From assembly GCA_964569815.1 (NCBI GenBank), contig CAZMUN010000002.1:2701-66700 (forward strand): a DNA stretch of 64,000 nucleotides, written 5' to 3'. This DNA comes from an uncultured archaeon (GTDB lineage Archaea; Iainarchaeota; Iainarchaeia; Iainarchaeales; GCA-2688035). The position numbers and the translations under genes are program-made. The notes beneath the pieces were generated by a model, which searched no databases, was not told where the DNA came from, and saw only the letters and a list, made by a program, of their open reading frames with translations. How positions within the stretch are numbered: the stretch's first letter is position 1; every line of letters begins with the position of its first letter. Shown here piece after piece: positions 16,594-34,961 of this stretch.

Positions 16594-16817
16594 AGCAACA
16601 CTCTTAATTGCGAAGCCACCCTAATTAGCTCAAAGCGAAATAGGGCTCTTGCTCGCACCAGCCGAACGTGACGGGTCTCGCACTCAATGCACAGTTTTGG
16701 GAAAATCATGGAACAGCCCATAATATATTCCTTTATTGAATGCATTAAATACTAATTGGAGTAGACTTCCCCTGATTAAACAATTTTAAATAACAATCGG
16801 GGCTTATTTTGTTGGAA

Positions 16818-18545
16818 ATGGCAAGGATTGACTGGAAAAAACCAGAGGACAGGGAAAGGCTTTGGCACAGCGCAAGCCATGTCATGGCAGCCGCTGTAAA
16901 AGAGCTTTGCCCTGACGCAAAACTGGCAATAGGCCCCGCAATAGAGGAAGGGTTTTACTATGATTTTGATGTCAAGGACAGCTTCAAGCCGGAAGAGCTG
17001 GAAGAAATTGAAAAAAAGATGCAGGAAATAATCAAGGCCGGGGAAAAGTTTGAAAAAAGGGAAATAAGCAAAAAAGAAGCAAAAGAAATCTTCAAAAACG
17101 AGCCCTACAAGCTGGAGCTCGTAGAAGAGCTGCGTGGAAGCAAGGCAAGCACTTACTCTACAGGAAACTTTGTGGACTTATGCAAGGGACCGCACATTGA
17201 GAACGCAAAGCAAATCGGAGCAGTAAAGCTTCTGAAAGTTGCCGGCGCGTACTGGCGCGGCTCTGAAAAAAACAAAATGCTTCAAAGGATTTACGGCATT
17301 GCGTTCCCTGACAAGAAAATGCTGAGAAAATGGCTTCACTTGAAAGAGGAAGCTGAAAAAAGAAACCATTTGAAGCTTGGCAGAAACTTGGACTTGTTCA
17401 GCATGCAGCCTGAGGCGCCAGGATGCGTTTTTATTCATCCAAAGGGAATGGTTGTCTGGAACGAGCTTGTGAGGTTCTGGCAGGACGAACACAGCAAGGC
17501 AGGCTATGTTGAAATAAGCACCCCAATTATTCTGAAAAAAAGCCTTTGGGAAAGGTCAGGCCATTGGAACCATTACAAGGAAAACATGTACTTTACAGTA
17601 ATAGACGGAGAGGACTTTGCAGTAAAGCCCATGAACTGCCCGGGAGGAATACTTGTTTACAAAAGCCACAGGCACAGCTACAGGGAATTGCCTTTGAGGA
17701 TTGCAGAGCTTGGCACTGTCCACAGGCACGAGCTTTCAGGGGTATTGAACGGGTTGTTCCGCGTGAGAAAGTTTACACAGGATGATGCACACATCTACTG
17801 CATGGAAGAGCAGGTTGAAGAAGAAGTCATAGGCGTCATTGAGCTAGTGGACCGAATTTACAAGGTTTTTGGGTTCCCATACCATGTTGAGCTAAGCACA
17901 AGGCCTGCCAAGGCAATGGGCTCCAAAGAGACGTGGGACAAAGCCGAGGCAGCATTGAAAAAGGCCATGCAGAAAAAGAAAATGCAATTCAAGGTCAATG
18001 AAGGCGACGGCGCATTCTATGGCCCGAAAATAGATTTCCATATAAAGGATTCTTTAGGAAGAACATGGCAGTGTGCCACTGTACAGCTTGACTTCTCAAT
18101 GCCTGAAAAATTTGATTTGACCTACATTGACAAGAACGACAAAGCCAAGAGGCCTGTAATGATTCACCGAGTCGTATACGGCAGCCTTGAAAGGTTTTTT
18201 GGGATTCTAATAGAACATTATGGCGGCGCGTTCCCAGCATGGCTAAGCCCTGCCCAGGTTTCACTGATTGCAATAGCCGACAAGCACCAGGATTACGCGG
18301 AACGCGTGAAAAAGGAGTTTGAGGAAGCAGGCCTTCGCGTTCTGCTCGACTCCAGAAGCGAAACCGTTTCAGCAAAAGTCCGCGATGCCCAGCTTCAGAA
18401 AATTCCCTACATTCTGGTTATAGGAGACCGTGAACAAAAAGACGGCACTGTTACAGTAAGGCAGCGTTCCGAAAAGGTTTTGGGTGCAAAAAAAACAAGT
18501 CAGTTTGTGGAAGAAACCCTAAAAGAAATCAGGGAAAAACGCTGA
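16818..18545 (+). CDS. thrS: Threonyl-tRNA synthetase (N2 editing-like domain, class II catalytic domain and anticodon-binding domain), lacking the N-terminal TGS domain
   Basis: HSASHVMAAAV (HxxxH), class II motifs RELPLRIAELGTVHRHELSG and FRVRKFTQDDAHIYC. Track ORF starts at the TTG at 16809; the ATG at 16818 is used here. Confidence 0.85.
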   Translation: MARIDWKKPEDRERLWHSASHVMAAAVKELCPDAKLAIGPAIEEGFYYDFDVKDSFKPEELEEIEKKMQEIIKAGEKFEKREISKKEAKEIFKNEPYKLELVEELRGSKASTYSTGNFVDLCKGPHIENAKQIGAVKLLKVAGAYWRGSEKNKMLQRIYGIAFPDKKMLRKWLHLKEEAEKRNHLKLGRNLDLFSMQPEAPGCVFIHPKGMVVWNELVRFWQDEHSKAGYVEISTPIILKKSLWERSGHWNHYKENMYFTVIDGEDFAVKPMNCPGGILVYKSHRHSYRELPLRIAELGTVHRHELSGVLNGLFRVRKFTQDDAHIYCMEEQVEEEVIGVIELVDRIYKVFGFPYHVELSTRPAKAMGSKETWDKAEAALKKAMQKKKMQFKVNEGDGAFYGPKIDFHIKDSLGRTWQCATVQLDFSMPEKFDLTYIDKNDKAKRPVMIHRVVYGSLERFFGILIEHYGGAFPAWLSPAQVSLIAIADKHQDYAERVKKEFEEAGLRVLLDSRSETVSAKVRDAQLQKIPYILVIGDREQKDGTVTVRQRSEKVLGAKKTSQFVEETLKEIREKR

Positions 18546-18602: not shown

Positions 18603-20336
18603 ATGGCGGACGAAGACTACTTGGCAGACCTTATAAAAAAGGTAAAACAGGCAAAAAAAGAGCAGGCTAAAGCAAAGGCAACTGCACCAAAAAAAGCCGA
18701 AATGCCTGCAGGAATTCCAAAAGAAGTCCAGGAAATAGACCTCAAAAAAATGCCTGAAAAGCAGTCAGAGCCACAGGCAGCCCCCGAAAAGCCAAAACAG
18801 GAACAGGCTGCAAAGGCAATGCCTGAGCCAGAAGAGGAAGAAGAAGCGCCAAGAAAAAGCACTGTTGAAAAAGAGCTGGAAGTGGCAAGCAAAAAAATAG
18901 AAATTGAAAGCTACGGCAACGTAAGAATAATGCAGGTTCCAGGAAAACCGCTTCCCTTTTACATGGTGCCTGTTGCAAGGCCGACAAAGCAGGAAAAAGC
19001 CGTAATAAACACCATAAAAGAGGCAGCCACAAGGCTTATCGCAATCTCGCCATACAGAATTCGCGACCCAACGCAAAGAAGAACGGTTTACAAACAACGC
19101 ATAATGGAAATCCTGAAAAACAGCCCAGAGCTGCACATTCCTGAGAGAAGGTTTGGGTTTTACGCCGAGTCCGTGATAAGGGAAATGGTGGGCTATGGCA
19201 TAATAGACCCGCTTGTAATGGACGACACGCTTGAAGAAATCATGGTGATTGGCGCAAAAAAGCCAGTTTACCTCTTTCACAGAAAATACGAAATGATGTC
19301 AAGCAACATTGAATTCTATTCAGACAAGGAAATAATCGACCTCATAAACAGGATTGCCCGCGTGATAGGAAGGCGCGTAGACATAAGCTCGCCGTTGCTT
19401 GATGCAAGGCTTCCGGACGGAAGCCGTGTCAATGCAACGATTCCGCCTGCCTCTGTAGAGGGGGCAACCCTTACCATAAGAAAATTCAGAAAAGACCCTT
19501 ACACAATAGTAGACCTTTTGAACAACGAAACACTTACAAGCGAAGTTGCCGCATTTTTGTGGCTGTGCGTTGACGGCCTGGGAGCAAAGCCAGCAAACAT
19601 ACTAATTGCAGGAGGAACAGGATCAGGAAAAACCACGACCTTAAACTGCCTGGCTTCCTTTATTCCAGATACTGAACGGGTTATATCAATCGAAGACACG
19701 GCTGAACTGTCACTGCCATTAAAGCACTGGGTGAGAATGGAGGCAAGGCCTCCAGGCCTAGAGGGAAAAGGCGAACTCACATTAGATGTTTTAACCAAAA
19801 ACAGCTTGAGGATGCGCCCAGACAGGATACTTGTGGGAGAGGTAAGGCACGACGAGGCATTCACGCTTTTCACTGCATTGAACACCGGCCACGACGGCTG
19901 TTTAGGGACGATTCACGCAAACTCGCCGCAGGAAACAATTGTTCGTGTTACAAGCCCACCAATGAACGTTCCGGAAGTAATGCTCTCAGGCCTGGACCTG
20001 ATTCTGATAGAGCACAAGCTCCATGACAGGAGAAAGGGAACGATAAGGCGCTTGACAGAGATAGCGGAAGTAAGCGGAGTTCTCTTGAGAAAAGCACAAA
20101 CCCAAACCATTTTTGCAAGGGACCCTGCAAAAGACACGATTGAGAGAACAAACGTTCCCATTAAATACTTTAAAATACTACAAGATTTCACAGGAATGAA
20201 GCAAAAAGACATAGAGGAAAACTGGAAAAAAAGGCAAGTTTTCCTCGAAAAAATGAGGCAAAAGGGCATAAGAAGCCTGGAAGAAGTGAAAAAAGAAACC
20301 CAAAAATTTTACATGGAAGAGAACCAAAATGCCTGA
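18603..20336 (+). CDS. Type IV pilus/archaellum assembly ATPase (FlaI/ArlI, VirB11/GspE superfamily) with a low-complexity K/E/P-rich N-terminal extension
   Basis: Walker A ILIAGGTGSGKTTTLN. Asp box and RIS...GEVR motifs. About 100 aa of lysine-, glutamate-, alanine- and proline-rich sequence at the N-terminus. Confidence 0.85.
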   Translation: MADEDYLADLIKKVKQAKKEQAKAKATAPKKAEMPAGIPKEVQEIDLKKMPEKQSEPQAAPEKPKQEQAAKAMPEPEEEEEAPRKSTVEKELEVASKKIEIESYGNVRIMQVPGKPLPFYMVPVARPTKQEKAVINTIKEAATRLIAISPYRIRDPTQRRTVYKQRIMEILKNSPELHIPERRFGFYAESVIREMVGYGIIDPLVMDDTLEEIMVIGAKKPVYLFHRKYEMMSSNIEFYSDKEIIDLINRIARVIGRRVDISSPLLDARLPDGSRVNATIPPASVEGATLTIRKFRKDPYTIVDLLNNETLTSEVAAFLWLCVDGLGAKPANILIAGGTGSGKTTTLNCLASFIPDTERVISIEDTAELSLPLKHWVRMEARPPGLEGKGELTLDVLTKNSLRMRPDRILVGEVRHDEAFTLFTALNTGHDGCLGTIHANSPQETIVRVTSPPMNVPEVMLSGLDLILIEHKLHDRRKGTIRRLTEIAEVSGVLLRKAQTQTIFARDPAKDTIERTNVPIKYFKILQDFTGMKQKDIEENWKKRQVFLEKMRQKGIRSLEEVKKETQKFYMEENQNA

Positions 20337-21450
20337 AAAAAAGCCAAGCAAGAAAGAAGAGCCCACAGAAATAGACATGGAAAAGGTCGAAAGAATAGTA
20401 AAAAGAATGCGGGACAAGTACCGCGACGAAGGAATGGAATTCGAGGAAGTGGGCGGAACCCTGAAAGAGCTTCGCGGCCTGATAGCAGAGGGAATGGCAG
20501 CCAAAATAGAAATACAAACCATTGACGAGCTAAGAGAAGTGAAAAGCAAGCTGGTAAAATTCCTGGTCAGCGTATACTTAAAGCTTGGCGCAGTCCTAAA
20601 GCCAATAGCAAAAGCAATGGGAAAATTCCCAGAAATGGAAATGCTCTCATTCTACTTGTACAGCGCAAACATGCACTACAGCAGCAAGCAATACATTGCC
20701 TTGACAGTTGCAAGCGCAACCCTTGCATTCCTTGTAGCAATGCTTACATCTGCCGCTGTCTTCACATACCTCAACATAGAGATGGCAACACGAGTAATAG
20801 CAATACTCGTAATATCGGCCCTGACCTTTGTAATAACCTCAGTTGCAATACTAATGGTTCCAAAGCAGAAAGCCATAGCAAGGGGAAACGCAGTAAGCAT
20901 AGAGCTGCCGTTTGCATTAAGGCACATGGCCACAGAGCTAAGGGCCGGAATAGGGCTTTACAGGACCATTCAAGCAGTGGCATCAGCAGACTACCACGAG
21001 CTAAGCGAAGAGTTTGCCCGCGTCATAACAGAGGTAGAGGAAGGCACAGACACACAGGACGCGTTAAGGCACCTTGCCTTGAGAACACAAAGCCGCGCAC
21101 TGAGAACAGCAATAATCCAAATAATCCGCGCACTAAAAACAGGCGGCAACTTAAGCGAAAGCATGAACGACATAGCAGAAGACGTTTCGTTTGAAATGAG
21201 GATGGCTGTCCGCGAATTCGGGCAAAGAATGAACTTCTTTGGAGTGGTCTTTATCTTTGGAGCAATAGTCATGCCCGTAATGATAACCATTTTAGGGGCA
21301 ATAAGAAACAGCCCCATAAAGGCAAGTATGTCAAGCTTTGAAATGCTTCCATTGACACTGCCGGTAATGGCAGCAATATACCTGGCAATAATGCCGTTCG
21401 TTCTGATATTGTTTTTGTTCTACATTAAAACAGCTCAACCAAGGGTGTAA
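20329..21450 (+). CDS. T2SSF-domain membrane platform protein (FlaJ/TadC-like), part 1
   Basis: ELPFALRHMATELRAGIGLYRTIQAVA is a T2SSF signature. Polytopic. Confidence 0.75.
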   Translation: MPEKKPSKKEEPTEIDMEKVERIVKRMRDKYRDEGMEFEEVGGTLKELRGLIAEGMAAKIEIQTIDELREVKSKLVKFLVSVYLKLGAVLKPIAKAMGKFPEMEMLSFYLYSANMHYSSKQYIALTVASATLAFLVAMLTSAAVFTYLNIEMATRVIAILVISALTFVITSVAILMVPKQKAIARGNAVSIELPFALRHMATELRAGIGLYRTIQAVASADYHELSEEFARVITEVEEGTDTQDALRHLALRTQSRALRTAIIQIIRALKTGGNLSESMNDIAEDVSFEMRMAVREFGQRMNFFGVVFIFGAIVMPVMITILGAIRNSPIKASMSSFEMLPLTLPVMAAIYLAIMPFVLILFLFYIKTAQPRV

Positions 21451-21452
21451 AA

Positions 21453-22397
21453 ATGGCAGAAGAAAAAAAGAAAGGATTGGAATTTTTTGAGAATTACAAA
21501 AAAATGCTGAAAAGCATTAAATTCAAGAGCCCTGCAGAAGCCTGGGTCCTGATATCAACAGTGCTTGCCCTGGCAGGCGCAATCGCAAGCTTTTCAGCCA
21601 TAGCAATTTTGCAGCTTCCTGTTTCACCGCTTGTTTCAACAGTCATATTCCTCGTGATTTTAGATGTTTTGCTTGGATACCCTTACCTTCGCGCGCTAAG
21701 AAGAATAAACGCAATAGAGGAAGCGCTTCCAGATGCCCTGAAACAGCTTGCAGACACCCTGAAGGCAGGCGGAACATATGAATACGCTTTAAGGGAGCTC
21801 TCCACATCAGAATACGGGCCGTTAAGCCACGAAATGGCAGAAGTGCTGAGAAAAATGGAGGAAGGCGAAAACCTGGAAGACAGCCTTAACAGCTTTTCAA
21901 GAAGCGTTGACTCAATCCTGGTAAAAAGAACCATTTCAATAATAAACGACGCAATAAAAGCAGGCGCAGGCTTGGCAGACGTGCTTGAAGAAATATCTGA
22001 TGACGTAAGGGCAATGCACCGCATTGCAAAGGAAAGAATTGCTGGGACGATGCTTCAAGTCATTTTCATTGTAGCAGCAGGCTCAATGGTTGCACCGGTC
22101 ATACTTGGAATGGTCACAACAGTTGTACAGCTTTTAATTGAAACAAGCGCAAGCATAGTAACAGAAAAGGCCCAGATAGTGGAAGCCATTGCAGCAAGAG
22201 ACTTCATCGTAATCCTGATGCAGCTTTACCTAATGCTTGAAGTGATTGCATCAGGTGCCATGATTGCAATGACCCGCGAGGGAAAAATAAGCAAAAGCCT
22301 TATATACATCCCAATGCTTTTATTATTGGCATTTGTTTGCTACTATACGGCAATATTTGTTTCAGGATTAATGATTGGCGGAATCGGAGCAAGATAA
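21453..22397 (+). CDS. T2SSF-domain membrane platform protein (FlaJ/TadB-like), part 2
   Basis: EALPDALKQLADTLKAGGTYEYALRELS is a T2SSF signature. Starts 3 bp after the previous gene, so the platform is split into two genes. Confidence 0.75.
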   Translation: MAEEKKKGLEFFENYKKMLKSIKFKSPAEAWVLISTVLALAGAIASFSAIAILQLPVSPLVSTVIFLVILDVLLGYPYLRALRRINAIEEALPDALKQLADTLKAGGTYEYALRELSTSEYGPLSHEMAEVLRKMEEGENLEDSLNSFSRSVDSILVKRTISIINDAIKAGAGLADVLEEISDDVRAMHRIAKERIAGTMLQVIFIVAAGSMVAPVILGMVTTVVQLLIETSASIVTEKAQIVEAIAARDFIVILMQLYLMLEVIASGAMIAMTREGKISKSLIYIPMLLLLAFVCYYTAIFVSGLMIGGIGAR

Positions 22398-22400
22398 AAA

Positions 22401-22664
22401 ATGGTTTGGAAAGAAAGAAAAGCCCAGGGAAGCATTGAATTGCTTGTGCTGATAGCAGGAGCAGTAATAGTTGTTGCCATTGTGGGCGTAATGCTGAAAA
22501 ACACTGCAACAACTGCTGCAGAACAGGCAGCATGCAAGACCCACAACAGCTGTGAAACATGCGTGGCAGACAGCCAGTGCAAGGCCCTTGACATTATGGG
22601 CGCGGAAATAGCCGACAGCGCATCCTGCACAGCACAGGCATATGAAACATGCGTGGCAACTTAA
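22401..22664 (+). CDS. Small cysteine-rich type IV pilin-like protein (class III signal peptide)
   Basis: RKA|QGSIELLVLIAGAVIVVAIVGV, with KA at -2/-1 and Glu at +5. C-terminus CKTHNSCETCVADSQCKAL...C...C (6 Cys). Confidence 0.7.
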   Translation: MVWKERKAQGSIELLVLIAGAVIVVAIVGVMLKNTATTAAEQAACKTHNSCETCVADSQCKALDIMGAEIADSASCTAQAYETCVAT

Positions 22665-22733
22665 AGCAAAAGAAAACGTTTATAAAGCAGAAAAAGGTAA
22701 TAAAATACATTTAAAAAAAAAGCAAAAACTTTA

Positions 22734-23009
22734 ATGGAGGTCAAAAAAATGGATGTAAGAGGACAAGGTGCATTAGAATACCTTTTGCTGATCGGAGGAG
22801 CAGTGCTGGTAGCAGCAATCGTCATAGCACTGATCACAGGCATACCAGGAACCACACCAGATCCATCAACCCAGGCAAAGTGTGCAACGTACTCGACATG
22901 CGCATTATGTGTGGCTGACGCAGATTGTGCGGCACTTGGATCAGATGGAGCAGAGTATGACGCCTGCGCAGGAATACCTGGATTCGATGGCTGTATAGTC
23001 GACTCATAA
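22734..23009 (+). CDS. Small cysteine-rich type IV pilin-like protein, paralog of the 22401 gene
   Basis: RG|QGALEYLLLIGGAVLVAAIVIAL, then CATYSTCALCVADADCAAL...C...C. Alternative start at 22749. Confidence 0.7.
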   Translation: MEVKKMDVRGQGALEYLLLIGGAVLVAAIVIALITGIPGTTPDPSTQAKCATYSTCALCVADADCAALGSDGAEYDACAGIPGFDGCIVDS

Positions 23010-23027
23010 ATATAGCAAGGTTTTCGC

Positions 23028-23201
23028 ATGGATAACAGGGCACAGGTTAGCATAGAGTACCTGCTGCTTGCATTGTTTGGAATAATCCTGGCAATGGTTG
23101 CGGCAGTGCTGGTTGACGGCATTAGTTCAGTGGCAAGAACAGCACAGGGCAGAATACTTGATTACCGTCATCAGACAATTGCATCCTTATTAGAGACCTA
23201 A
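23028..23201 (+). CDS. 57-aa minor pilin-like protein (class III signal peptide), absent from the ORF track
   Basis: Hand translation MDNRA|QVSIEYLLLALFGIILAMVAAVLVDGISSVARTAQGRILDYRHQTIASLLET. Same RA|QxSIE pattern as its neighbours. Confidence 0.6.
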   Translation: MDNRAQVSIEYLLLALFGIILAMVAAVLVDGISSVARTAQGRILDYRHQTIASLLET

Positions 23202-23222
23202 AAAAGGGGTTTTTGTTTTACC

Positions 23223-24341
23223 ATGGCCCCTTTCCTATTCTTCTTCTTTGTTTCACTGCTTGGCTTAGCCTACGGCACATACACAGACTTCAAGGAAAGA
23301 ATCATACACGACTGGGTAACGTATGGCATGGTCGCTTTGGGGATAGCAGGCCATGCAGTGCTTGCATTCCTTTACCAGGACCCAATGGTTTTTGTAACGG
23401 CTTTGCTCGTAACCACGACAACGTTTTTGGCGGCATACGGCCTATACAAGATAGGCGTCTGGGCAGGCGGAGACGTAAAGCTTTTTGCAGGCCTTGCAGC
23501 CCTGAACCCGGTGAACCCGGCAATTCTGGCAAGGCTTGGCCTGATAACCGAGCCCTTGATTCAGCCAATTGATGCCCCTATTTTTCCGCTGACACTTTTT
23601 ATCTTCAGCCTCTTTGCAATGCTGCCATATGGGGCAATTCTCGCCGCCTCAAGGCTTAGGGCAAACAAGGCTGAAAAGAAGAAGTTCAAGGAAGAGGGCA
23701 AAAAAAGGCTGCTGCAGGCAGTGGAAGCAAGCGCAATAGTTGTGGGCCTGAGCCAAGCGATGGCATTTCTCCAAATAAGCCAATGGCTTGTTCTGCCATT
23801 GCTTGTTTTGTCCGGCCTCGTGCCAAAAAAGCCAAGGCTTGTAATCTCAGCCGTTTTGCTGTTCTACGCGCTGTTTGAAAACGCGGAACTGGCAGCACAG
23901 CAGTTTTTATTTATCGCGGCCTTCTTTTTCGGGCTATACCTTTTGTTCAAGCTATACCATTTGTCCAAAACACTTATGAGAAAGCCTGTTGCAATGGAAA
24001 AGCTTGAGGAAGGAATGATCTCAGCGCAAACCCTTGTAAAAAGCGGGCCAAACGTGAAAGTGGTGCCCGAAATTGGAATAAAAAAGTTAATTAACTACCT
24101 CGCCCTAAATAGGTCCAAAAAGGCAGTGCAATACCTTAAGCCAAAAGGCCGGGTTGTTGTTTCAAACAAGTCGGCAGGAGGCCTAACAGAAGAGGAAATA
24201 AGGGAACTCCAAAAACTTGCGCAGGAGAAAAAAACGCCCTCGGTTTTATGGGTAAAGGAAAGCGCTCCCTTTGTTCCCGCTGTGCTGATTGCATTCCTTG
24301 CACTGAACTTGGTTGGAGACATAATATGGGTTTTGGTTTAA
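23223..24341 (+). CDS. Prepilin/preflagellin peptidase (A24 family, PibD/FlaK-like) with a C-terminal extension
   Basis: Catalytic Asp motifs YTDFKERIIHD and GGDVKLFAGL in a polytopic membrane protein. Confidence 0.8.
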   Translation: MAPFLFFFFVSLLGLAYGTYTDFKERIIHDWVTYGMVALGIAGHAVLAFLYQDPMVFVTALLVTTTTFLAAYGLYKIGVWAGGDVKLFAGLAALNPVNPAILARLGLITEPLIQPIDAPIFPLTLFIFSLFAMLPYGAILAASRLRANKAEKKKFKEEGKKRLLQAVEASAIVVGLSQAMAFLQISQWLVLPLLVLSGLVPKKPRLVISAVLLFYALFENAELAAQQFLFIAAFFFGLYLLFKLYHLSKTLMRKPVAMEKLEEGMISAQTLVKSGPNVKVVPEIGIKKLINYLALNRSKKAVQYLKPKGRVVVSNKSAGGLTEEEIRELQKLAQEKKTPSVLWVKESAPFVPAVLIAFLALNLVGDIIWVLV

Positions 24342-24841
24342 ACAGAAAGGGAAGCATTAGCATTGAATTCATTCTGCTGATTGGCGTGGCCCTGATTTAC
24401 ATAAACGGGGTGGTATGGCCTATTGCAAACAGCAGCAGCGCTGCAACAGCAGACGTCAAAGCTGTTGCAGACACAAAGATTGCAGCCATGAAGCTTGGGA
24501 ATGCAATAAACCAGGCAGCCATTTCATCAGGAGAAATGAAGAAAACAGTCCAGCTCATGGTTCCAAAAAACTCGAAAATAGCCTGTTCGACAACAAGTGC
24601 AAGCTTGGTTTACATGGCGTATGTGGATTACATGGGAGGCTGGAACCCTGATGAAATCAATTGCACGGTTTACCCTAGTGCGCCGGCAGACCCAGAAGGG
24701 TTTGAATGCCAATCCCAAATAGGCCTTATCCAGGCGCCGGACAACTGCATTGCCGGAGCAACGATTTCGGGACCGATTTTGCGCGACATTGTTGTAAAAA
24801 AGAACGACGCTGGAGATATTTCTGTTGAGTGGGCCACATGA
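24326..24841 (+). CDS. Pilin-like protein (class III signal peptide), 171 aa
   Basis: MGFGLNRKG|SISIEFILLIGVALIYI. Start at the ATG at 24326 overlaps the peptidase end by 16 nt. The track ORF from 24248 is an out-of-context extension. Confidence 0.65.
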   Translation: MGFGLNRKGSISIEFILLIGVALIYINGVVWPIANSSSAATADVKAVADTKIAAMKLGNAINQAAISSGEMKKTVQLMVPKNSKIACSTTSASLVYMAYVDYMGGWNPDEINCTVYPSAPADPEGFECQSQIGLIQAPDNCIAGATISGPILRDIVVKKNDAGDISVEWAT

Positions 24842-25203
24842 AGCAAAAAGGCCAGGTAAGCATTGAAGCACTTATTCTTACAGCCGTAGTAATTTTGATG
24901 AGCATATCTGTTTTCGGCTACTACATCCAGATAAAGGATTCTACAACAGGAATGGAGGCCGCAAAAATCGAGGCCCTGCGGCAAATAAGCCAAGCAGGGC
25001 AAAAAGCCACTCTTGAAAGAATTGAATACAAATACGACCCCGGCCCTGGAATTGGCATAAGGTTCTGCTTTTTTTACGAAGCGGAAGCAGGCTTTGCATT
25101 TGACCAAAGCAAGCTCAAGAGCGAAATAGCTTCCCTGACCGCTTTTAACTCAACCGGCATAGAAATCCAGGAAAACCCTGCGGCAGCAAGCAACTGCGAG
25201 TAA
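24838..25203 (+). CDS. Pilin-like protein (class III signal peptide), about 122 aa
   Basis: MKQKG|QVSIEALILTAVVILMSI. ATG at 24838 overlaps the previous stop. Confidence 0.65.
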   Translation: MKQKGQVSIEALILTAVVILMSISVFGYYIQIKDSTTGMEAAKIEALRQISQAGQKATLERIEYKYDPGPGIGIRFCFFYEAEAGFAFDQSKLKSEIASLTAFNSTGIEIQENPAAASNCE

Positions 25204-25262: not shown

Positions 25263-25625
25263 ATGCTAAGGCAGGAAACAATTGCACAGGCTTCACTGGC
25301 TGTGGCAATGGCAGGTCTTTTGGCGCTGTGGTTTCTTGCAACCATGTTTGAAGCAAAAGAAACAAAGATATCCGAAATAAGCGAAGAAATGCTTGAACAA
25401 AAAGTGAAGCTAAACGCACGGGTTTTAAGCAGAAAGCAAAACAAGGAAACGGTTTTTTTTGAATTGTATGATGGAACAGGAACCATAAAAGCGGTTGCCT
25501 TTAATGCAAGCAGCCCTGAAATGGAACGGCTTCAGAAAAACAGCTGCGCCGAGTTTTTGGGAAAGGTCCAAACCTACAAAGGCGAGCTTGAACTGGTTTT
25601 ACAAGGAGCCGAGCAATGGCACTAG
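25263..25625 (+). CDS. Membrane-anchored OB-fold domain protein
   Basis: N-terminal TM helix, then VFFELYDGTGTIKAVAFN...GKVQTYKGELELVL, an OB-fold/tRNA_anti-like pattern. Confidence 0.45.
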   Translation: MLRQETIAQASLAVAMAGLLALWFLATMFEAKETKISEISEEMLEQKVKLNARVLSRKQNKETVFFELYDGTGTIKAVAFNASSPEMERLQKNSCAEFLGKVQTYKGELELVLQGAEQWH

Positions 25626-26803
25626 AAATCATTGGCTTTGCCATTGCAGGCTGCTTTTTGGGAATCTTGTCAGGCATTGTGCCAGGGCTTCATGTGAACA
25701 CAATCGCCTTGCTTGCTTTGGCCATGCCAAAAACCAACAGCTTGGGCCTTGTTGTCTTAATTGCTTCAATGAGCGTGGTCCACACATTTGTTGACTTTCT
25801 TCCCAGCGTATTGCTTGGCGCTCCAAGCAATGACACTTTTTTGGCTGCCCTGCCAGGGCACAGGCTTTTGATGAAGGGAAAAGGCCTTCTTGCAGTAAAG
25901 CTTACCATTGCAGGCGGCCTTTTTTCGGGTTTGGGGGCAATAGCTCTCGGGCCTGTTTTTCTTGCAGTGATTGAAAAAAGCCATGAAATGGTTTCAGCAG
26001 GCATTCCATTCTTTCTCTGCCTTGTTTTGGTTGCAATGGCCTTAAGCGGAAAAAGGTTTTCCAACACAATGATAATGGCTTTAAGCGCAGCTCTTGGCCT
26101 GATTGCACTGCAAGAGCTGCCGGTAAAGCAGCCGTTGTTTTGCCTTGCAACAGGCTTTTTTGGGGCAAGCGCCCTGCTGGATTCCCTGTTTAAAAACCCT
26201 GTTCTGCCAAAGCAAGGCTTACACAAACTCAATGCAAAGAAAGGGCCTGTTTTCAAAAACTCTGTTATTGCGGTTTTGGGCGGAAGCCTTGTTTCACTGA
26301 TGCCAGGCATTGGGGCAAGCCAGGCAGGCTTTCTTGCAAGAAAGGCCTTGGGAAAAATTCCTGTATCCGAATACCTTGTTCTCTTGGGAGGCATAAACAC
26401 TGCAACAATGATTTTGTCTTTTTTTGTGCTTTTTTCATGGGGAAAGACAAGGACTGGAAGCGCTGCAGCAATAGGGCAACTTCTTCCATTCAGGCAAGAA
26501 GAGCTTTTGGTTGTCACAGCGGCCTGTGTAATGGCCCTGGGCTTTGGCGCAATTGCAGCAGACCTATTGTCAAAAAAAATGGCCAAGGTTTTTGCCAAAA
26601 TAAATTACAGGAAAGCAAACGCAGTAGTGCTTTGCTTCATAACAGGAATGGTTTTTGCTTTTTCAGGGCTTTTAGGGCTTTTGGTTTACGCAACAGCCGC
26701 ATTCACAGGCCTTGCTGCAATAAACCTTGGCGTAAGAAGAAGCAACACAATGTCTTTCCTAATAGTGCCAACAATGGCCAACTATGCCGCAGGATTGATT
26801 TAA
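25616..26803 (+). CDS. TctA-family (DUF112) polytopic membrane protein
   Basis: GIVPGLHVNTIALLAL resembles the DUF112 signature. About 10 TM segments. Confidence 0.5.
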   Translation: MALEIIGFAIAGCFLGILSGIVPGLHVNTIALLALAMPKTNSLGLVVLIASMSVVHTFVDFLPSVLLGAPSNDTFLAALPGHRLLMKGKGLLAVKLTIAGGLFSGLGAIALGPVFLAVIEKSHEMVSAGIPFFLCLVLVAMALSGKRFSNTMIMALSAALGLIALQELPVKQPLFCLATGFFGASALLDSLFKNPVLPKQGLHKLNAKKGPVFKNSVIAVLGGSLVSLMPGIGASQAGFLARKALGKIPVSEYLVLLGGINTATMILSFFVLFSWGKTRTGSAAAIGQLLPFRQEELLVVTAACVMALGFGAIAADLLSKKMAKVFAKINYRKANAVVLCFITGMVFAFSGLLGLLVYATAAFTGLAAINLGVRRSNTMSFLIVPTMANYAAGLI

Positions 26804-26829
26804 AAAGCAATTTGCAACAGCAAAATGGT

Positions 26830-27201
26830 ATGGTGAGAATAAAGCAGGGAACGCTGGAAGCAGTGCTGCTTGCGGCAAAAAACACCTACCCGAACGAGTT
26901 CCTGGCATTGCTTTCAAGCAAAAAAAAGGGGTCAAAGGTAATAGACGAATATGTTTTGCTGCCATCAACATACGGAAGCACTTTCAGCAGCATAAGGCTT
27001 GACTTAATGCCCTACACAGGCAAAGGCCTTGGAAGCATTCACTCGCATCCAAGCCCAAACCCAAGGCCAAGCAAAGGCGATTTGGCTGCATTCAGGGCAA
27101 TGGGAGAAATACATTTAATAACTGCCTACCCTTTCTCTTTTGAAAGCACCCGTGCTTTCGACAAGTTTGGAAAAGCTTTGGAACTGGAAGTGGTTGAATG
27201 A
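26830..27201 (+). CDS. JAMM/MPN+ metalloprotease (small archaeal JAMM1-type)
   Basis: E...HSHPSPNPRPSKGD is the canonical JAMM motif (E, HxH, x7, S, x2, D). The true start ATG at 26830 was found by hand. The track's 254-aa ORF (26437..) includes a spurious extension overlapping the DUF112 gene. Confidence 0.75.
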   Translation: MVRIKQGTLEAVLLAAKNTYPNEFLALLSSKKKGSKVIDEYVLLPSTYGSTFSSIRLDLMPYTGKGLGSIHSHPSPNPRPSKGDLAAFRAMGEIHLITAYPFSFESTRAFDKFGKALELEVVE

Positions 27202-28709
27202 AAAAGGTTGTCCTAGTCATAAGAGACGGCTGGGGTTTTAATCCAAAACAAGAAAAAAACGCTATTTTTGCAGCAAACACCGAAAACACCGACCGGTTGA
27301 TGAAAGAATATCCAAACACCTTGCTTGAATGCGCAGGGGAGGCAGTCGGCCTTCCAAAAGGATACCAAGGAAACAGTGAAGTCGGACATATGACCATTGG
27401 CTCCGGCCGCGTCATATTTCAGCCGATGGTTAGAATAAACAAGGCCATCGAATCAGGCGAGTTTTTTAAAAACAGGGCCTTCCTGCAGGCGATTGAAAAT
27501 TGCAGGAAACACAATAGCGCCCTGCATCTCATTGGACTGCTTCAAAGCGAAGGGGTCCACAGCCATGAAAACCACCTTTTTGCACTTCTAGAATTATGCA
27601 AAAAGAAAAACTTTGACAAGGTTTTAGTGCATGCAGTAATGGACGGGCGTGACGCCCCGCCCAAAGACGGAATAAAGCATTTGAAAAAGCTAAAGCAAAA
27701 AATGGAAAGTGTTGGCTTGGGAAAGATTGCAACACTTTCAGGACGATACTACACTATGGACCGCGACAAAAGATGGGACCGCACCAAAAAGGCATATGAC
27801 TGCATTGTTTTGGGAAAGGCTGAAAGCTTTGAAGATGCGGAAAAAAAGCTTGTTGAATGCTATGGAAAAAAGGAAACAGACGAGTTTTTGACACCGAGAA
27901 GAGCAGAATGGTATCAGGGCGTTAAGGAAAAAGACAGCATAATTTTTTTCAACTTCAGGACAGACAGGCCAAGGCAGCTAACCCAAGCCATTGTTGAGAA
28001 AATGTTTGCAGGCTGGAGGCGCAAGCCGCTTGATGTCTTTTTTGCGGCTATGACTGAATACTATAAGCCAATGAAAGCTATTGCGGCATTCAAAGACCAG
28101 AATATTGAAAACCTGCTTGGCGAAGTCATAAGCAAGGCCGGACTAAAGCAGCTGCGTATTTCGGAAACAGAAAAATATGCCCACGTAACCTTTTTCTTCA
28201 ACGGCCAGAAAGAGCAGCCAAGCAAAGGCGAGGACAGGATAATGGTGCCAAGCCCAAAGGTTGCAACCTATGACAGGAAACCAGAAATGAGCGCATTTGA
28301 GGTTACAGAAAAGCTTGTGAAAGAGATTGAAAGCGAAAAACACGAATTTATTGTGGTAAACATTGTAAACGGCGACCTTGTAGGCCACACGGGAATATGG
28401 AACGCATGCCTCAAAGCAGCAGAAACAGTTGACAAATGCGTTGCCAGAATAACAGAAGCAGGCCTCAAACACGACTACAGCTTGCTTATTTTTGCCGACC
28501 ACGGCAACCTTGAAGACCAGTCAAAGCAATGGGGGACATCCCACACACTAAACCCGGTTCCCATAGTTATTGTATCAGAAGACGAAAAGCTGAAAAAAAC
28601 TGTTTTGAAACAAGGCTTTGGCCTGAAAGACATAGCCCCAACAGTTTTGGGCATAATGGGAATAAAAAAGCCAAAAGAAATGACCGGAACAGGTTTGCTT
28701 CAAGGCTAA
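27198..28709 (+). CDS. gpmI: 2,3-bisphosphoglycerate-independent phosphoglycerate mutase (iPGM)
   Basis: VVLVIRDGWG, NSEVGHMTIGSGRV, ADHGN motifs. Size and architecture match iPGM. Confidence 0.85.
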   Translation: MKKVVLVIRDGWGFNPKQEKNAIFAANTENTDRLMKEYPNTLLECAGEAVGLPKGYQGNSEVGHMTIGSGRVIFQPMVRINKAIESGEFFKNRAFLQAIENCRKHNSALHLIGLLQSEGVHSHENHLFALLELCKKKNFDKVLVHAVMDGRDAPPKDGIKHLKKLKQKMESVGLGKIATLSGRYYTMDRDKRWDRTKKAYDCIVLGKAESFEDAEKKLVECYGKKETDEFLTPRRAEWYQGVKEKDSIIFFNFRTDRPRQLTQAIVEKMFAGWRRKPLDVFFAAMTEYYKPMKAIAAFKDQNIENLLGEVISKAGLKQLRISETEKYAHVTFFFNGQKEQPSKGEDRIMVPSPKVATYDRKPEMSAFEVTEKLVKEIESEKHEFIVVNIVNGDLVGHTGIWNACLKAAETVDKCVARITEAGLKHDYSLLIFADHGNLEDQSKQWGTSHTLNPVPIVIVSEDEKLKKTVLKQGFGLKDIAPTVLGIMGIKKPKEMTGTGLLQG

Positions 28710-28742: not shown

Positions 28743-29159
28743 ATGAAAGCCCAGATTTCCCTAGATTTGATGCTAACAATAGCCGTTGCCCTGGTTGCAG
28801 TAGGCAGTGCAGCAGCCTTAGGCCAAAACATTCTGGAAATGCAGTCAGATGCCTCTGTGAAAGCACAGCTTGAAAGCATTGGAACAGGCCTTGCGGAAAT
28901 AATCAGTGTTTCCGCGGTTTTGGGAGACGCAGACGACGCAAAAGCGGAATACGAGATTCCCGCTCTGCATGTGCCAGGAGAGAAAAACCCGCAAACCTGC
29001 AGCATAAGCCTTGCAGGAACAAACTTAACCTTAAGCTATGAGCTAGCAGACCTTGAAACAGGGGCAAGCAGAACCATAACTGTTTCAAAAAAAGTAATAG
29101 ACCCCGGAATGAACATAACAATGGGAAACTGTGGGGAAACAATGGTGATAAAAACATGA
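28743..29159 (+). CDS. Pilin/archaellin-like protein (class III signal peptide)
   Basis: MKA|QISLDLMLTIAVALVAVG, with acidic residue at +5. Confidence 0.6.
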   Translation: MKAQISLDLMLTIAVALVAVGSAAALGQNILEMQSDASVKAQLESIGTGLAEIISVSAVLGDADDAKAEYEIPALHVPGEKNPQTCSISLAGTNLTLSYELADLETGASRTITVSKKVIDPGMNITMGNCGETMVIKT

Positions 29160-29602
29160 ATAAAAAAGGCCAGCTTTTTTCACTAGACTTTTTGATTTCG
29201 CTTATAGCAATAACAGCAGCAGTTGGCCTGATGATTCACTCAATTGAAACAACTACCTACAACCAAAAAGAATTCAACCAAAGGAACGAAATGGAGTCCG
29301 TGGCAGAGCTTGCAACAGCAATACTTGCAGCAGACAGCAGGATTGCATGCACGGATGGAAGAGGGCAAGCAATTGTGAACTGCATTGACTCCGGCAAAAA
29401 CCGCTCCCATGCACTGGATTTTGTTACTGGCAGCGGCTACCATTACAGCCTGCAGGACAATTCTGGAACCATAGATGAGTCGTCAGCAGTTTACACAAGC
29501 CAGGATTTTTACGAAGTGAAGAGAACGGTTTTCATAGATGGCACGGATTCGGCAAACGAAGCAGAGCTGGCTTTGAAGGTGTGGAAATGGGAAAAGGCAT
29601 GA
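29156..29602 (+). CDS. Pilin-like protein (class III signal peptide)
   Basis: MNKKG|QLFSLDFLISLIAITAAVGLMI. Overlaps the previous stop. Confidence 0.6.
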   Translation: MNKKGQLFSLDFLISLIAITAAVGLMIHSIETTTYNQKEFNQRNEMESVAELATAILAADSRIACTDGRGQAIVNCIDSGKNRSHALDFVTGSGYHYSLQDNSGTIDESSAVYTSQDFYEVKRTVFIDGTDSANEAELALKVWKWEKA

Positions 29603-29925
29603 TTTTCACAATGGATGCCGCGCTTGCATTGGTGGTTGTAATGCTGGTTGCGGCAACTTTGCCGGCCCAGGTCCAGGCAAACCTGGAAGAAGAAAACTTG
29701 AATCAAAAGCTTCACCAAAGGGCCCTAGACAGGGGAATTTCCGCGCTTTACAAAGAAGATGTTTCAGGCTACAGCGGATCAAACGAGGAAGAAATAGGTG
29801 CAACAGACCGCTTTGGGGAATGCGTGGAAGTGCACGGGCTTATGGAAGACCCAACAACAGGCACTGAAAACCTTTATGGCCCCGATGTGCCAGAAAAAGG
29901 GGTTTTGTGCGAGGGAGCAACATGA
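29581..29925 (+). CDS. Pilin-like protein (class III signal peptide)
   Basis: GKG|MIFTMDAALALVVVMLVAA. Alternative starts at 29587 and 29599. Confidence 0.5.
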   Translation: MEMGKGMIFTMDAALALVVVMLVAATLPAQVQANLEEENLNQKLHQRALDRGISALYKEDVSGYSGSNEEEIGATDRFGECVEVHGLMEDPTTGTENLYGPDVPEKGVLCEGAT

Positions 29926-30467
29926 ACAGCAACTTTACTAAAAGGGGGTTTTCCAAAGGGTTTTACACCGGGACAATTGCATTGACTGCAGTCATAATAA
30001 TTAGCGTGGTTTCCTTCAGTGCCATTTCTTCTATAGAGGCAGGCGAGGCAAAAAGCCAGGCAAGGGCAATTTTGGATGTAAGGTATGACTTCCAAAAGGC
30101 TTCGGTTATTGTTTCAAAAACCGTTTCTGATGCACTTGCAGACGCAAGCTTTGACGGCACAAGTTGCGGCTATGAAAAGAATGCTGCAGGAACAAATCTT
30201 CAGAACTATTTTGAAAACAACCATGTTCTTGCAACAACCTATGAAAACTGCACTGCAGAAATAAAGCAGCTACGCCAAGAAAATAGGCAGGTGGAAGTTG
30301 AGATTTACTGCACCAAAAACGCTGAAGGGGTTTTAGCAGAGTATAAAACCAGGGTTGAGTATAATAAGGCGGTTAGCGCAGTAGACAGCGGAACAGACTG
30401 CACTGTAACAGTCACAGACGATGACACTGGACAGGTCGAAGTCCAGGAAACCGAAACATATGTCTAA
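29907..30467 (+). CDS. Pilin-like protein (class III signal peptide), 186 aa
   Basis: KRGFSKG|FYTGTIALTAVIIISVV, followed by a Cys-containing globular region. Confidence 0.5.
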   Translation: MRGSNMNSNFTKRGFSKGFYTGTIALTAVIIISVVSFSAISSIEAGEAKSQARAILDVRYDFQKASVIVSKTVSDALADASFDGTSCGYEKNAAGTNLQNYFENNHVLATTYENCTAEIKQLRQENRQVEVEIYCTKNAEGVLAEYKTRVEYNKAVSAVDSGTDCTVTVTDDDTGQVEVQETETYV

Positions 30468-33386: not shown

Positions 33387-34961
33387 TTGAGGGGGTTGCT
33401 TTTGGCTGTGAAAGAGGAGTGCGGAATAGCATCTGTTTCACTGCCAAAAAACATGAAAAACCCTCCTTTGGGTGGAGCCGCCTACTACTTGTACAAAATG
33501 CTTTTACAGCAACAGCACCGAGGCCAAAACAGTGCCGGCATAACAACTTACAGAAAAAAAAGAACCCAGCTTATAGACACTTACAAAGATTTGGGCATGG
33601 TTAACGAGGTTTTCAGAAGCCACCATTTTGCAAAAAACGCGGCAATTCTCAAGGAATACTCTGGAACCAAAGGAATAGGGCATGTTCGCTATTCCACAAG
33701 CGGAAACGATGACGCTGCAGCGGCCCAGCCCTTTGAAAGGCACCACGGCAGGCTTTGGAAATGGTTCAGCTTTTCATTCAACGGCCACATAGCAAACTTT
33801 TCACAGCTAAAAAAAGAGCTAATGAAATCCAGTTACCATCTTATCAGAAACGTTGACACCGAACTCACAATGCACTTCATTTCAAAGGCAATGGTAGGCG
33901 GAAAAAGAAGGCCCTTGGAAGACGTGTTCAACGAACTCTCCGAAGTGTTTGACGGAGCCTACAACCTCAACTATTTGGATGCCGAAGGAAGAATGGCTGT
34001 TGTACGAGACCCAATCGGCATAAGGCCGCTTTGCTACAGCAAGGAGGACGGGTTTTTCATGGCTGCAAGCGAAAGCTGTGCTTTGACCAACTGCGAGGCA
34101 GAAAAAATAAAAGACGTAAAGCAGGGGGAAATTGTTTTGGTTGAAGACGGTTCAGTGGAAGTGAAAAGGTATGCCAAAAAGCAGAAGCCAAGGCACTGCA
34201 TGTTTGAATGGGTTTACTTTGCAAACCCTGCTTCAATAATTGACAGCGTAAGCGTTTACGAGTCAAGATGGCGTTTGGGAGAAGAGCTTGCAAAAAAGGA
34301 ATTCCTGGATGTAAACGACAAAGAGCACGTGGTTGTTCCTGTGCCTGACACGGCAAAGCCTGCAGCAGCAGGCTATGCAAACAGCATGGGACTCCATTCA
34401 ATGGAGGGGCTTATAAGAAACAGGTACGTTGGCCGGACATTTATAGAGGGAGTAAAAAGGGCAGAGATTGCAAGAGAAAAATACAACATCAACAAAAGCA
34501 TAATAAAAGACAAAAAGATAATTCTGGTTGACGACAGCATTGTTCGCGGAACAACAAGCAAGGCTTTTATCAGCATGCTGAGAAAGCTGGGAAAGCCAAA
34601 AGAAGTCCATATGAGAATCAGCTGCCCACCAATAAAATACCCCTGCTATTACGGGACAGACATGTCGACAATGCACGAGCTTGCTGCACCACAACACATG
34701 TCTTTAGAGGAAGCAAAAACAGTAGGCATAGATGTTTCTAAAGAAGCTATTGGAAAGATTGGAAAAGAAATTGGTGTCGACAGCCTAGCATACCAGGATA
34801 TTGAAGGGCTTAAAAGGGGCCTAAGGCTTCCGGAAGAATCAGGCCTTTGCATGGCCTGCCTTACAGGGCAATACCCAACCGAATTTGGAAAAAAGCTTTT
34901 TAACAGGGCCCTAAAAGAATTTGAAAAAAAGCCGAAAATAAGGCATAAAAGGGTAATTTAA
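33387..34961 (+). CDS. purF: Amidophosphoribosyltransferase (glutamine PRPP amidotransferase)
   Basis: Short propeptide, then the Ntn Cys (EECGIAS). PRTase motif ILVDDSIVRGTTS. C-terminal [4Fe-4S] ligands CMACLTGQYP. Confidence 0.8.
   Translation: MRGLLLAVKEECGIASVSLPKNMKNPPLGGAAYYLYKMLLQQQHRGQNSAGITTYRKKRTQLIDTYKDLGMVNEVFRSHHFAKNAAILKEYSGTKGIGHVRYSTSGNDDAAAAQPFERHHGRLWKWFSFSFNGHIANFSQLKKELMKSSYHLIRNVDTELTMHFISKAMVGGKRRPLEDVFNELSEVFDGAYNLNYLDAEGRMAVVRDPIGIRPLCYSKEDGFFMAASESCALTNCEAEKIKDVKQGEIVLVEDGSVEVKRYAKKQKPRHCMFEWVYFANPASIIDSVSVYESRWRLGEELAKKEFLDVNDKEHVVVPVPDTAKPAAAGYANSMGLHSMEGLIRNRYVGRTFIEGVKRAEIAREKYNINKSIIKDKKIILVDDSIVRGTTSKAFISMLRKLGKPKEVHMRISCPPIKYPCYYGTDMSTMHELAAPQHMSLEEAKTVGIDVSKEAIGKIGKEIGVDSLAYQDIEGLKRGLRLPEESGLCMACLTGQYPTEFGKKLFNRALKEFEKKPKIRHKRVI

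Follow-up and report, generated by a model that had tools for sequence, protein, structure and literature searches.

The stretch of 64,000 nucleotides considered here (the window hereafter; GenBank assembly GCA_964569815.1, contig CAZMUN010000002.1, positions 2,701 to 66,700 of the forward strand) comes from an uncultured archaeon of small genome size in the Iainarchaeota (DPANN) and carries, besides archaeal genes for Nre, RFC, ABCE1, Pelota, an Elp3-like protein and HerA/NurA, nine tightly packed forward-strand genes at 18603-25203 encoding an assembly ATPase, two platform proteins, three pilins, an A24 peptidase and two more pilins. This pilus gene set is real, intact and conserved, and it very probably specifies an EppA-dependent (Epd, 'system 1') archaeal type IV pilus, sister group of the bacterial Tad/Flp systems. 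The conserved cluster extends beyond these nine genes to a pair encoding an OB-fold protein and a TctA-like membrane protein (25263-26803) and to a module of four pilin-like genes, m1-m4 (28743-30467), so that a preliminary description of the locus as complete in about 6.6 kb drew its limits too narrowly. While the pilus locus itself is ordinary, as Epd-like/system 1 loci with split platforms have already been described, the less expected trait is the presence, inside the conserved cluster, of two genes needed for DNA uptake in methanogens.

Gene content, conservation and class of the pilus locus

The nine genes are the following, where the arrow marks the cleavage site of the class III signal peptide, aa stands for amino acids and TM for transmembrane:

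18603-20336 (+): pilus assembly ATPase, TadA/CpaF/EpdL-like, 577 aa; PF00437 T2SSE, E=1e-44
20329-21450 (+): platform protein, N-terminal-half equivalent, 373 aa; one PF00482 T2SSF domain, E=8e-21
21453-22397 (+): platform protein, C-terminal-half equivalent, 314 aa; one PF00482 T2SSF domain, E=7e-18
22401-22664 (+): pilin 1, 87 aa, KA↓QGSIE, Cys-rich head; PF04021, E=4e-7, one N-terminal TM helix
22734-23009 (+): pilin 2, 91 aa (86 aa if the start is ATG 22749), RG↓QGALE, Cys-rich variable head; PF04021, E=4e-7
23028-23201 (+): pilin 3, 57 aa, RA↓QVSIE, Flp/EpdE-like, no globular head; PF04021, E=2e-3 (sub-threshold), single TM helix
23223-24341 (+): EppA-type class III signal (prepilin) peptidase, 372 aa; PF01478 Peptidase_A24, E=5e-12, and PF06819 Arc_PepC, E=2e-10
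24326-24841 (+): pilin 4, minor-pilin candidate, 171 aa, RKG↓SISIEF, beta-rich head; class III-type N-terminus, one hydrophobic helix
24838-25203 (+): pilin 5, minor-pilin candidate, 121 aa from ATG 24838 (the open reading frame, or ORF, opens at GTG 24829), KG↓QVSIE; PF04021, E=3e-3 (sub-threshold), single TM helix

The type IV pilus-like locus of the preliminary description, namely ATPase, split platform, A24 peptidase and five class III pilins, is borne out gene by gene: all nine genes lie where it placed them and have Pfam matches, the profile searches for T2SSE, T2SSF and Peptidase_A24 returned PF00437, PF00482 (twice) and PF01478, and each of the five small ORFs shows a class III cleavage motif and a TM helix.

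In the ATPase, the Walker A (GGTGSGKT) and Walker B (RMRPDRILVGE) motifs are both intact. Among solved homologues, CpaF of the Tad system is the best match (5e-78), ahead of Archaeoglobus fulgidus GspE (2OAP, 8e-71) and FlaI (3e-55); this order, CpaF then A. fulgidus GspE then FlaI, is a proxy for clade only, and it is A. fulgidus GspE then CpaF for an orphan paralogue located elsewhere in the window. Of note, the first 125 or so residues (18603-18980) form a low-complexity extension rich in K, E, A and P with no domain match, and homologues have a similar total length; besides, many homologues in related genomes (P0020, P0058, P0064, P0095) contain inteins (PF14890/PF14528), of which the window copy is free. 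The gene for the first platform protein starts before the ATPase stop, and its product aligns to positions 17-252 of the 484 in the UpsF model; the second aligns to C-terminal halves, that is to ArlJ 189-461 of 465 (1e-19) and UpsF 267-437 of 484, and the two platform genes are paralogous (E=3e-18). Regarding the peptidase, D22 and GGD84 align with the two catalytic Asp motifs of the preflagellin peptidase FlaK (PDB 3S0X), nine hydropathy peaks are seen, the N-terminal part matches FlaK (2e-13) and the NCBIfam EppA model gives a weak match over the C-terminal half (2e-9, with 37 bits where the cut-off is 450).

All five small proteins open with a short basic leader ending in Gly or Ala (position -1), contain Glu at +5 and have one hydrophobic helix, located N-terminally; PF04021 (Class_IIIsignal) matches pilins 1 and 2 above its cut-off and pilins 3, 4 and 5 below it. 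The start motif [KR][GA]↓Q-x-S-[IL]-E, initially ascribed to each of them, holds for pilins 1, 3 and 5 and breaks down in pilin 2, which has Ala at +3 (QGALE), and in pilin 4, with Ser at +1. The strict motif [KR][GAS]Q.[SA].E turns up only four times when the 64 kb window is translated in six frames, always at the N-terminus of a pilin ORF; a looser motif followed by a hydrophobic run adds pilin 4 and the gene at 28743, its other matches lying deep within unrelated reading frames. Across related genomes, residue +1 is Gln in 215 of 216 orthologous pilin ORFs.

Conservation was assessed in 80 genome loci taken around homologues of the locus ATPase. Hundreds of close homologues (60-89% identity) occur in metagenome-assembled genomes, mostly labelled Candidatus Iainarchaeum/Diapherotrites, and more distant ones (47-58% identity) in Micrarchaeota and a few other lineages. 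The order ATPase-platform 1-platform 2-pilins-peptidase-pilin-pilin is found throughout the Iainarchaeota, in dozens of genomes with 50-80% ATPase identity, as well as in some genomes of Micrarchaeota, and since it recurs in so many genomes the pilus locus is clearly under selection as a unit. The chief variation among the Iainarchaeota loci is the number of pilin-2-type paralogues, from one to six. The exact ATPase and pilin 4 of the window already exist as NCBI-sourced entries. As a side observation, a locus of Iainarchaeota type (75-84% ATPase identity) is filed under Chloroflexota, Chloroflexi, Thaumarchaeota or Izemoplasmatales metagenome-assembled genomes in contigs L003, L005 and L037 and for protein P0097; such odd taxon labels are most likely binning errors.

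The Epd class corresponds to clade 1 (Makarova 2016) and to 'system 1' (Sivabalasarma and Albers 2026). It is characterised by one ATPase, two platform genes and a dedicated, much larger A24 peptidase with about nine TM segments, EppA, as well as by pilins with Gln at +1 and Glu at +5, including several minor pilins and major pilins of about 70 aa or shorter that lack a globular head. Epd-like systems and bacterial Tad form one clade, in which gene fission split the platform into two genes with a single T2SSF domain each (Denise 2019), and two such genes are the hallmark of the Epd-like/Tad systems (Denise 2019; Makarova 2016; Sivabalasarma and Albers 2026). The window locus has two adjacent single-T2SSF platform genes, in the order N-half then C-half that the fission scenario for Epd/Tad has, and a large EppA-type A24 peptidase within the locus; Gln at +1 is found in four of the five locus pilins and Glu at +5 in all five, the +1 exceptions being pilin 4 and, in the module downstream, m3 and m4; short head-less pilins of the major type are represented by pilin 3 (about 51 aa once mature) and by the orthologues of pilin 1 (46-57 aa). 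The split platform, presented in the preliminary description as an anomaly, is in the light of this literature the very signature of the Epd/Tad class. The pilin count does not stand out as unusually high either, since Methanococcus maripaludis needs five Epd pilins (with 14 predicted EppA substrates) and related loci carry from about four to eight or more pilin-like genes. In other words, both traits are diagnostic rather than odd, and the locus adds to a known class, of which system 1 loci have been reported in DPANN archaea and Micrarchaeota and Epd-like split-platform loci in methanogens, Thermococcales and DPANN archaea.

With the Epd system of M. maripaludis, the window locus shares a single ATPase, a platform encoded by two separate half-size genes (EpdJ/EpdK), a large, dedicated A24 peptidase extended at its C-terminus (EppA), K/R-G/A↓Q...E pilin leaders, several minor pilins and very short pilins of the major type. 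It differs in being one cluster of about 12 kb, whereas eppA/epdA-F, epdJKL, the major pilin and the OB/TctA genes lie at separate loci in M. maripaludis; besides, its ATPase gene comes first, its pilin heads are Cys-rich, and genes for a FlaH/MinD-type ATPase, adhesin domains or a transglutaminase-peptidase are not nearby. As for the bacterial Tad/Flp system (type IVc; TadA/CpaF, TadB, TadC, TadV/CpaA, Flp, TadE/TadF), for which common ancestry with Epd-like systems has been proposed (Denise 2019), the similarities are CpaF as the closest solved ATPase homologue, two single-T2SSF genes, head-less pilins of about 50 aa, two larger minor pilins beside the peptidase and Glu at +5. However, the window peptidase is the archaeal nine-TM form with Arc_PepC and not a short TadV, and the host is a monoderm archaeon; the locus works like Tad but is not a Tad member, because neither the secretin RcpA nor TadZ, TadD or TadG is among the Pfam matches of the locus and window genes and because the host is archaeal. 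Within the DPANN archaea, the Micrarchaeota member 'Ca. Mancarchaeum acidiphilum' Mia14 has a type IV pilus (MIA14_0170-0177) placed in the Methanococci/Methanobacteria/Thermococci group; it is described as 'shared by many Micrarchaea', with host contact or DNA exchange as its suggested role. Compared by description only, it is likewise a clade-1-type pilus of a DPANN archaeon, and the present analysis found homologues of the window locus in Micrarchaeota; the difference is that a single FlaK-like peptidase, located elsewhere, is reported for Mia14, whereas the window has an EppA-type peptidase inside the locus.

Several points weigh against the assignment to the Epd class. It is based on architecture and proxies (CpaF and the NCBIfam models) rather than on EpdL, EpdJ, EpdK and EppA references, and all NCBIfam matches of the locus genes fall far below the equivalog cut-offs. 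The ATPase gene precedes the platform genes, unlike the typical Epd/Tad order. No second ATPase of FlaH/TadZ/FleN/MinD type is found in the locus or the window, nor a deviant Walker A MinD motif in any window ORF; likewise, the window ORFs scanned gave no KaiC or ParA Pfam match, though another part of the genome may hold a gene of this kind. Finally, residue +1 is Ser in pilin 4, Met in m3 and Phe in m4, whereas the EppA of M. maripaludis requires Gln; because of the Ser in pilin 4, the window peptidase may be more tolerant at this position.

Two other filament types can be set against the assignment to an Epd-type pilus. The top NCBIfam match of the ATPase is the FlaI model (1.6e-85), and its homologues, annotated publicly as 'CpaF family protein', bear at JGI the label 'flagellar protein FlaI', as might be expected of an archaellum, the rotary motility filament. 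With 288 bits where the cut-off is 550, this match nevertheless falls short; CpaF is nearer than FlaI, the platform is split, the locus and the window yielded no genes for FlaH, FlaX/CDE, FlaF/G or archaellins, and +1 Gln substrates are not processed by FlaK, the archaellin peptidase, in M. maripaludis; the probability of an archaellum is next to nil. Archaeal type IV filament machineries have also been proposed as adapted for substrate-binding proteins with class III signal peptides, and the ATPase matches the BasE model of the bindosome (3e-51), so that a short pseudopilus or 'bindosome'-like device displaying or secreting surface proteins, such as substrate-binding proteins, could be envisaged. 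Yet the BasE score is far under both those of FlaI/TadA and its own cut-off, the nine class III proteins of the cluster (57-186 aa) have a pilin-like architecture devoid of any substrate-binding or enzyme domain, and head-less pilins of 51 aa when mature are typical Epd/Tad filament subunits, all of which makes this device highly improbable. Both the archaellum and the bindosome are rejected on gene content.

The OB-fold/TctA-like pair and its possible link to DNA uptake

Immediately after pilin 5 come two genes, the second of which starts before the stop of the first:

25263-25625 (+): membrane-anchored OB-fold protein, 120 aa; PF01336, E=4e-12, one N-terminal TM helix
25616-26803 (+): TctA-like polytopic membrane protein, 395 aa; PF01970 TctA, E=2e-36 over the full length, about 11-12 hydropathy peaks

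The N-terminal TM helix is kept in 57 of the 58 OB-fold homologues, and the charges flanking it weakly favour an outward-facing OB domain. No NCBIfam family covers the TctA-like protein.

In M. maripaludis, a transposon screen backed by confirmed deletions established that natural transformation needs the Epd genes epdA, C, F, J, K, L and eppA, together with the adjacent pair MMJJ_13020 (OB-fold, one TM segment) and MMJJ_13030 (TctA-like, 11 TM segments), the latter being proposed by the authors of the screen as the missing archaeal DNA transporter. A TctA-like gene is essential for transformation in two methanogens, and archaea are devoid of the TctB/TctC partners. The window pair agrees with MMJJ_13020/13030 in the two Pfam families, in adjacency and order and in the architecture of one TM segment plus OB-fold; the difference is that the M. 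maripaludis pair is not beside pilus genes. Thus, the constituents of the M. maripaludis-type transformation machinery, an Epd-type pilus and a single-TM OB-fold/TctA-like pair, are all present and contiguous in the window, with identity established at the family level. The M. maripaludis-type machinery further includes a MinD-like ATPase and a membrane thermonuclease, a membrane-bound nuclease being required for transformation; no MinD-like or SNase genes were seen among the window ORFs scanned. Separately, a 119-aa protein encoded at 34958-35317 (-), about 4.5 kb from the m1-m4 module, has an N-terminal hydrophobic helix, and so appears membrane-anchored, followed by PF10107, an endonuclease family related to archaeal Holliday junction resolvase (2e-18); this family differs from that of the M. 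maripaludis transformation nuclease.

The pair accompanies the pilus genes well beyond the window. In 22 of the 25 ATPase-anchored loci with at least 3 kb of sequence after the peptidase gene, a TctA gene lies on the same strand within 4 kb downstream of it, and the OB gene follows the last pilin in 29 of 36 related ATPase-anchored loci. Such figures could be accounted for by an adhesion or host-attachment pilus only, the OB/TctA pair, JAB, cofactor-independent phosphoglycerate mutase (iPGM) and threonyl-tRNA synthetase (ThrRS) genes around it being neighbours through inherited synteny and TctA an ordinary solute transporter. Epd pili do mediate surface attachment in M. maripaludis, the variable Cys-rich pilin heads, with one to six paralogues per locus, resemble diversifying adhesins, and the ThrRS gene (16809-18545), directly upstream of the nine-gene set, is just as syntenic in Iainarchaeota with no functional link. 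In the Micrarchaeota (L051-L055), however, OB-TctA still stands between pilin genes although ThrRS, JAB and iPGM are absent from the neighbourhood and every other flanking gene is different, and in two rearranged loci, L020 and L027, the pair still adjoins pilin genes, coming in L027 directly after the A24 peptidase and two pilins. Because the pair stays with pilins in these Micrarchaeota and rearranged loci, the linkage is more than inherited synteny; the lack of TctB/TctC partners and the need for a TctA-like gene in methanogen transformation likewise argue against a mere solute transporter. Taken with this evidence, an adhesion-only pilus is a credible reading that remains rather short of an even chance.

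The linkage was also examined from the opposite side, in 80 metagenome loci anchored on TctA homologues, which were found with a 6-sequence alignment, an 11-sequence alignment being too divergent for the scan. A universal TctA-pilus linkage had to be rejected, as the linkage proved lineage-specific: the association of OB-TctA with the pilus is specific to Iainarchaeota and part of the Micrarchaeota and is not shared by distant TctA homologues, most of which are not beside pilus genes.

Regarding DNA uptake, a number of observations count against such a role. Of the 20 TctA loci for which 8 kb or more lies upstream, only 7 contain ATPase or platform genes, and 12 of the 13 well-flanked TctA loci devoid of pilus genes had no class III ORF nearby, the single regular-expression match (L110) not being pilin-like. 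ThrRS is equally syntenic across the Iainarchaeota, so that adjacency alone proves little; the correspondence with MMJJ_13020/13030 is one of family-level identity; and a T-run after pilin 5 is a possible terminator that would separate the pair from the pilins as a distinct transcription unit (intergenic regions were read directly, a bacterial promoter/terminator scan being set aside as the host is an archaeon). The DNA-uptake reading is a matter of guilt by association.

On the whole, the gene context makes a case for DNA uptake that is no weaker than the one for attachment or host interaction. The pilus probably attaches to surfaces or partner cells. Its participation in a DNA-uptake apparatus, with the OB-fold protein as receptor and the TctA-like protein as channel, would have a chance just under even, judging from gene context and the methanogen precedent; attachment and DNA uptake are not mutually exclusive, as M. 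maripaludis illustrates. In such an apparatus, the pilus would be the outer arm, the OB-fold protein, proposed as the DNA receptor, would take over the DNA and the TctA-like protein, proposed as the DNA channel, would conduct it across the membrane. More tentatively, and with the balance tilted against it, the whole conserved block, from the ATPase gene through the OB-TctA pair to m1-m4, may be a single-locus archaeal competence apparatus, in which the pilus would capture DNA and the OB-fold and TctA-like proteins would be the counterparts of ComEA and ComEC, respectively; nucleotide-poor DPANN cells could then import DNA for genes or for nucleotides. If true, such a single-locus apparatus would bring independent comparative-genomic support to the still unproven proposal of a TctA-like DNA transporter. 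In any case, OB/TctA genes embedded among pilin genes in two DPANN phyla bear on the question of which protein moves DNA across the archaeal membrane. No report linking TctA to DPANN or archaeal pilus loci was found in the literature searched, whose coverage was incomplete, so that this is no proof of novelty.

Pilin families and proposed assembly

Of the five pilin families, that of pilin 2 has the most conserved mature N-terminus, GQGALEYLLLIGGAVLVA (mean identity 0.60 over residues 1-25). It counts one to six paralogues per locus, most heads having 4 or 6 Cys, and the 69-nucleotide gap upstream of its gene contains a TATA-like TTTATAAA. Because of this conserved N-terminus, the variable copy number, the variable Cys head and a TATA-like box of its own, pilin 2 is a candidate for the main shaft (major) subunit. 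Its start may be 22749. Pilin 1 differs from its orthologues (L001, L005, L032, L037), which are 46-57 aa long and contain no Cys, in carrying a C-x5-C-x2-C-VAD-x2-C head that matches that of pilin 2; this looks like head shuffling between pilin paralogues, as far as can be read from the sequences. Orthologues of pilin 3 hardly vary in length once mature (about 51 aa), are free of Cys and have Gln at +1 in 42 of 43 cases. Searches of PDB sequences with pilins 2 and 3 returned nothing relevant.

The two larger pilins adjoin the peptidase gene downstream, and most likely pilin 4 starts at 24326, not 24248, and pilin 5 at ATG 24838, which gives an ATGA overlap with the pilin 4 stop. The Ser at +1 of pilin 4 is common only to its closest relative (74% identity), Gln being found in 32 of the 32 other orthologues. 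An AlphaFold2 model of pilin 4, based on a homologue search that yielded five sequences, is of moderate quality, with a predicted local distance difference test score of 72. Pilin 5 orthologues are 103-143 aa long, with Gln at +1 in 19 of 19. Neither pilin 4 nor pilin 5 matched the Pfam TadE family at E<=1.

While gene content, motifs, domains and conservation are observed, how the pilus is assembled, how tasks are shared among its pilins and what it serves for in the cell are inferred from the protein families. The nine class III signal peptide proteins, that is the five pilins and m1-m4, would insert in the membrane via their N-terminal helix, and the EppA-type aspartyl peptidase, with its nine or so TM segments, would cut the short basic leader after Gly or Ala, thus exposing Gln at +1. 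A hexameric TadA/CpaF-like ATPase would dock on the platform made of the two half-size T2SSF proteins and lift the pilins from the membrane, the latter stacking by way of their hydrophobic helices and Glu at +5 to form a helical filament. The shaft would be built of short pilins, namely pilin 2 with its variable disulfide-rich head and pilins 1 and 3 (Flp-like and grouped as head-less), while pilins 4 and 5 and m1-m4 may act as minor, priming or tip pilins. As a compact all-in-one machine, the parts of which are scattered in the model organism, the cluster offers a part list that is easy to read, and in this lineage, of which no member has been cultured, the pilin heads, variable and rich in disulfides, may serve to recognise partners or surfaces.

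The m1-m4 module and other genes of the window

Downstream of the OB-TctA pair lie a gene for a JAB-domain protein and, at 28743-30467, four co-directional genes with pilin-like N-termini and one TM helix each:

26812-27201 (+): Prok-JAB/MPN domain protein, 129 aa; PF14464, E=4e-9
28743-29159 (+): pilin-like m1, 138 aa, MKA↓QISLD; class III-like N-terminus, single TM helix
29156-29602 (+): pilin-like m2, 148 aa, KKG↓QLFSLDF; class III-like N-terminus, single TM helix
29581-29925 (+): pilin-like m3, 114 aa, GKG↓MIFTMD; single N-terminal TM helix
29907-30467 (+): pilin-like m4, 186 aa, SKG↓FYTG; single TM helix at 17-46

Pfam and NCBIfam searches returned no family for m1-m4. Homologous four-gene modules nonetheless come after the cluster in many Iainarchaeota loci. 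Orthologues of m1 come after JAB or TctA in related loci, and those of m2, with the signature G↓Q[IM]FS[LIV]DF, are found in Iainarchaeota and Micrarchaeota. The Micrarchaeota modules have an m3-equivalent gene in the same position (KG↓FIFTMD, KG↓IFLLID) and, as fourth gene, an equivalent of m4 (KG↓FFSF, KG↓FATAFF); the module stands directly beside the ATPase-platform genes in L060/L065 and directly after TctA in L052/L054, where one m1-like gene separates TctA from the m2 orthologue.

In most Iainarchaeota loci, though not in those of Micrarchaeota, the JAB gene comes after TctA, and since it is co-conserved in Iainarchaeota only, its membership in the conserved cluster is doubtful. Between JAB and m1-m4 lies the iPGM gene (27198-28709), here and in L002; the module directly follows JAB in many other Iainarchaeota loci, and the iPGM gene looks like an insertion into the cluster.

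Elsewhere in the window, the orphan T2SSE-family ATPase mentioned above (40254-41807 (-), 517 aa) shares 45% identity with the locus ATPase and has no adjoining platform gene, its neighbours being a LigT-like gene and a 460-aa ORF at 41877-43259, a CCA-adding enzyme by reading of the sequence alone. Because its best solved homologue is A. fulgidus GspE, ahead of CpaF, which reverses the preference of the locus ATPase, the orphan is assigned, on sequence comparison, to a different clade. It could be a second motor, for retraction for instance, or a remnant of a second system; in a related locus, L153, a reverse-oriented ATPase lies downstream of the pilus cluster.

Two further proteins are candidates for a part in cell-cell contact, namely an apparent 266-aa protein encoded at 37659-38459 (-), which has, as read from the sequence, an N-terminal leader and a C-terminal stretch that are both hydrophobic, and no known domain, and a 331-aa protein encoded at 60618-61613 (-), which ends in an H-type lectin domain (1e-6). 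Lastly, the CDC48-type AAA ATPase encoded at 371-4036 (-) contains an intein with a LAGLIDADG domain.

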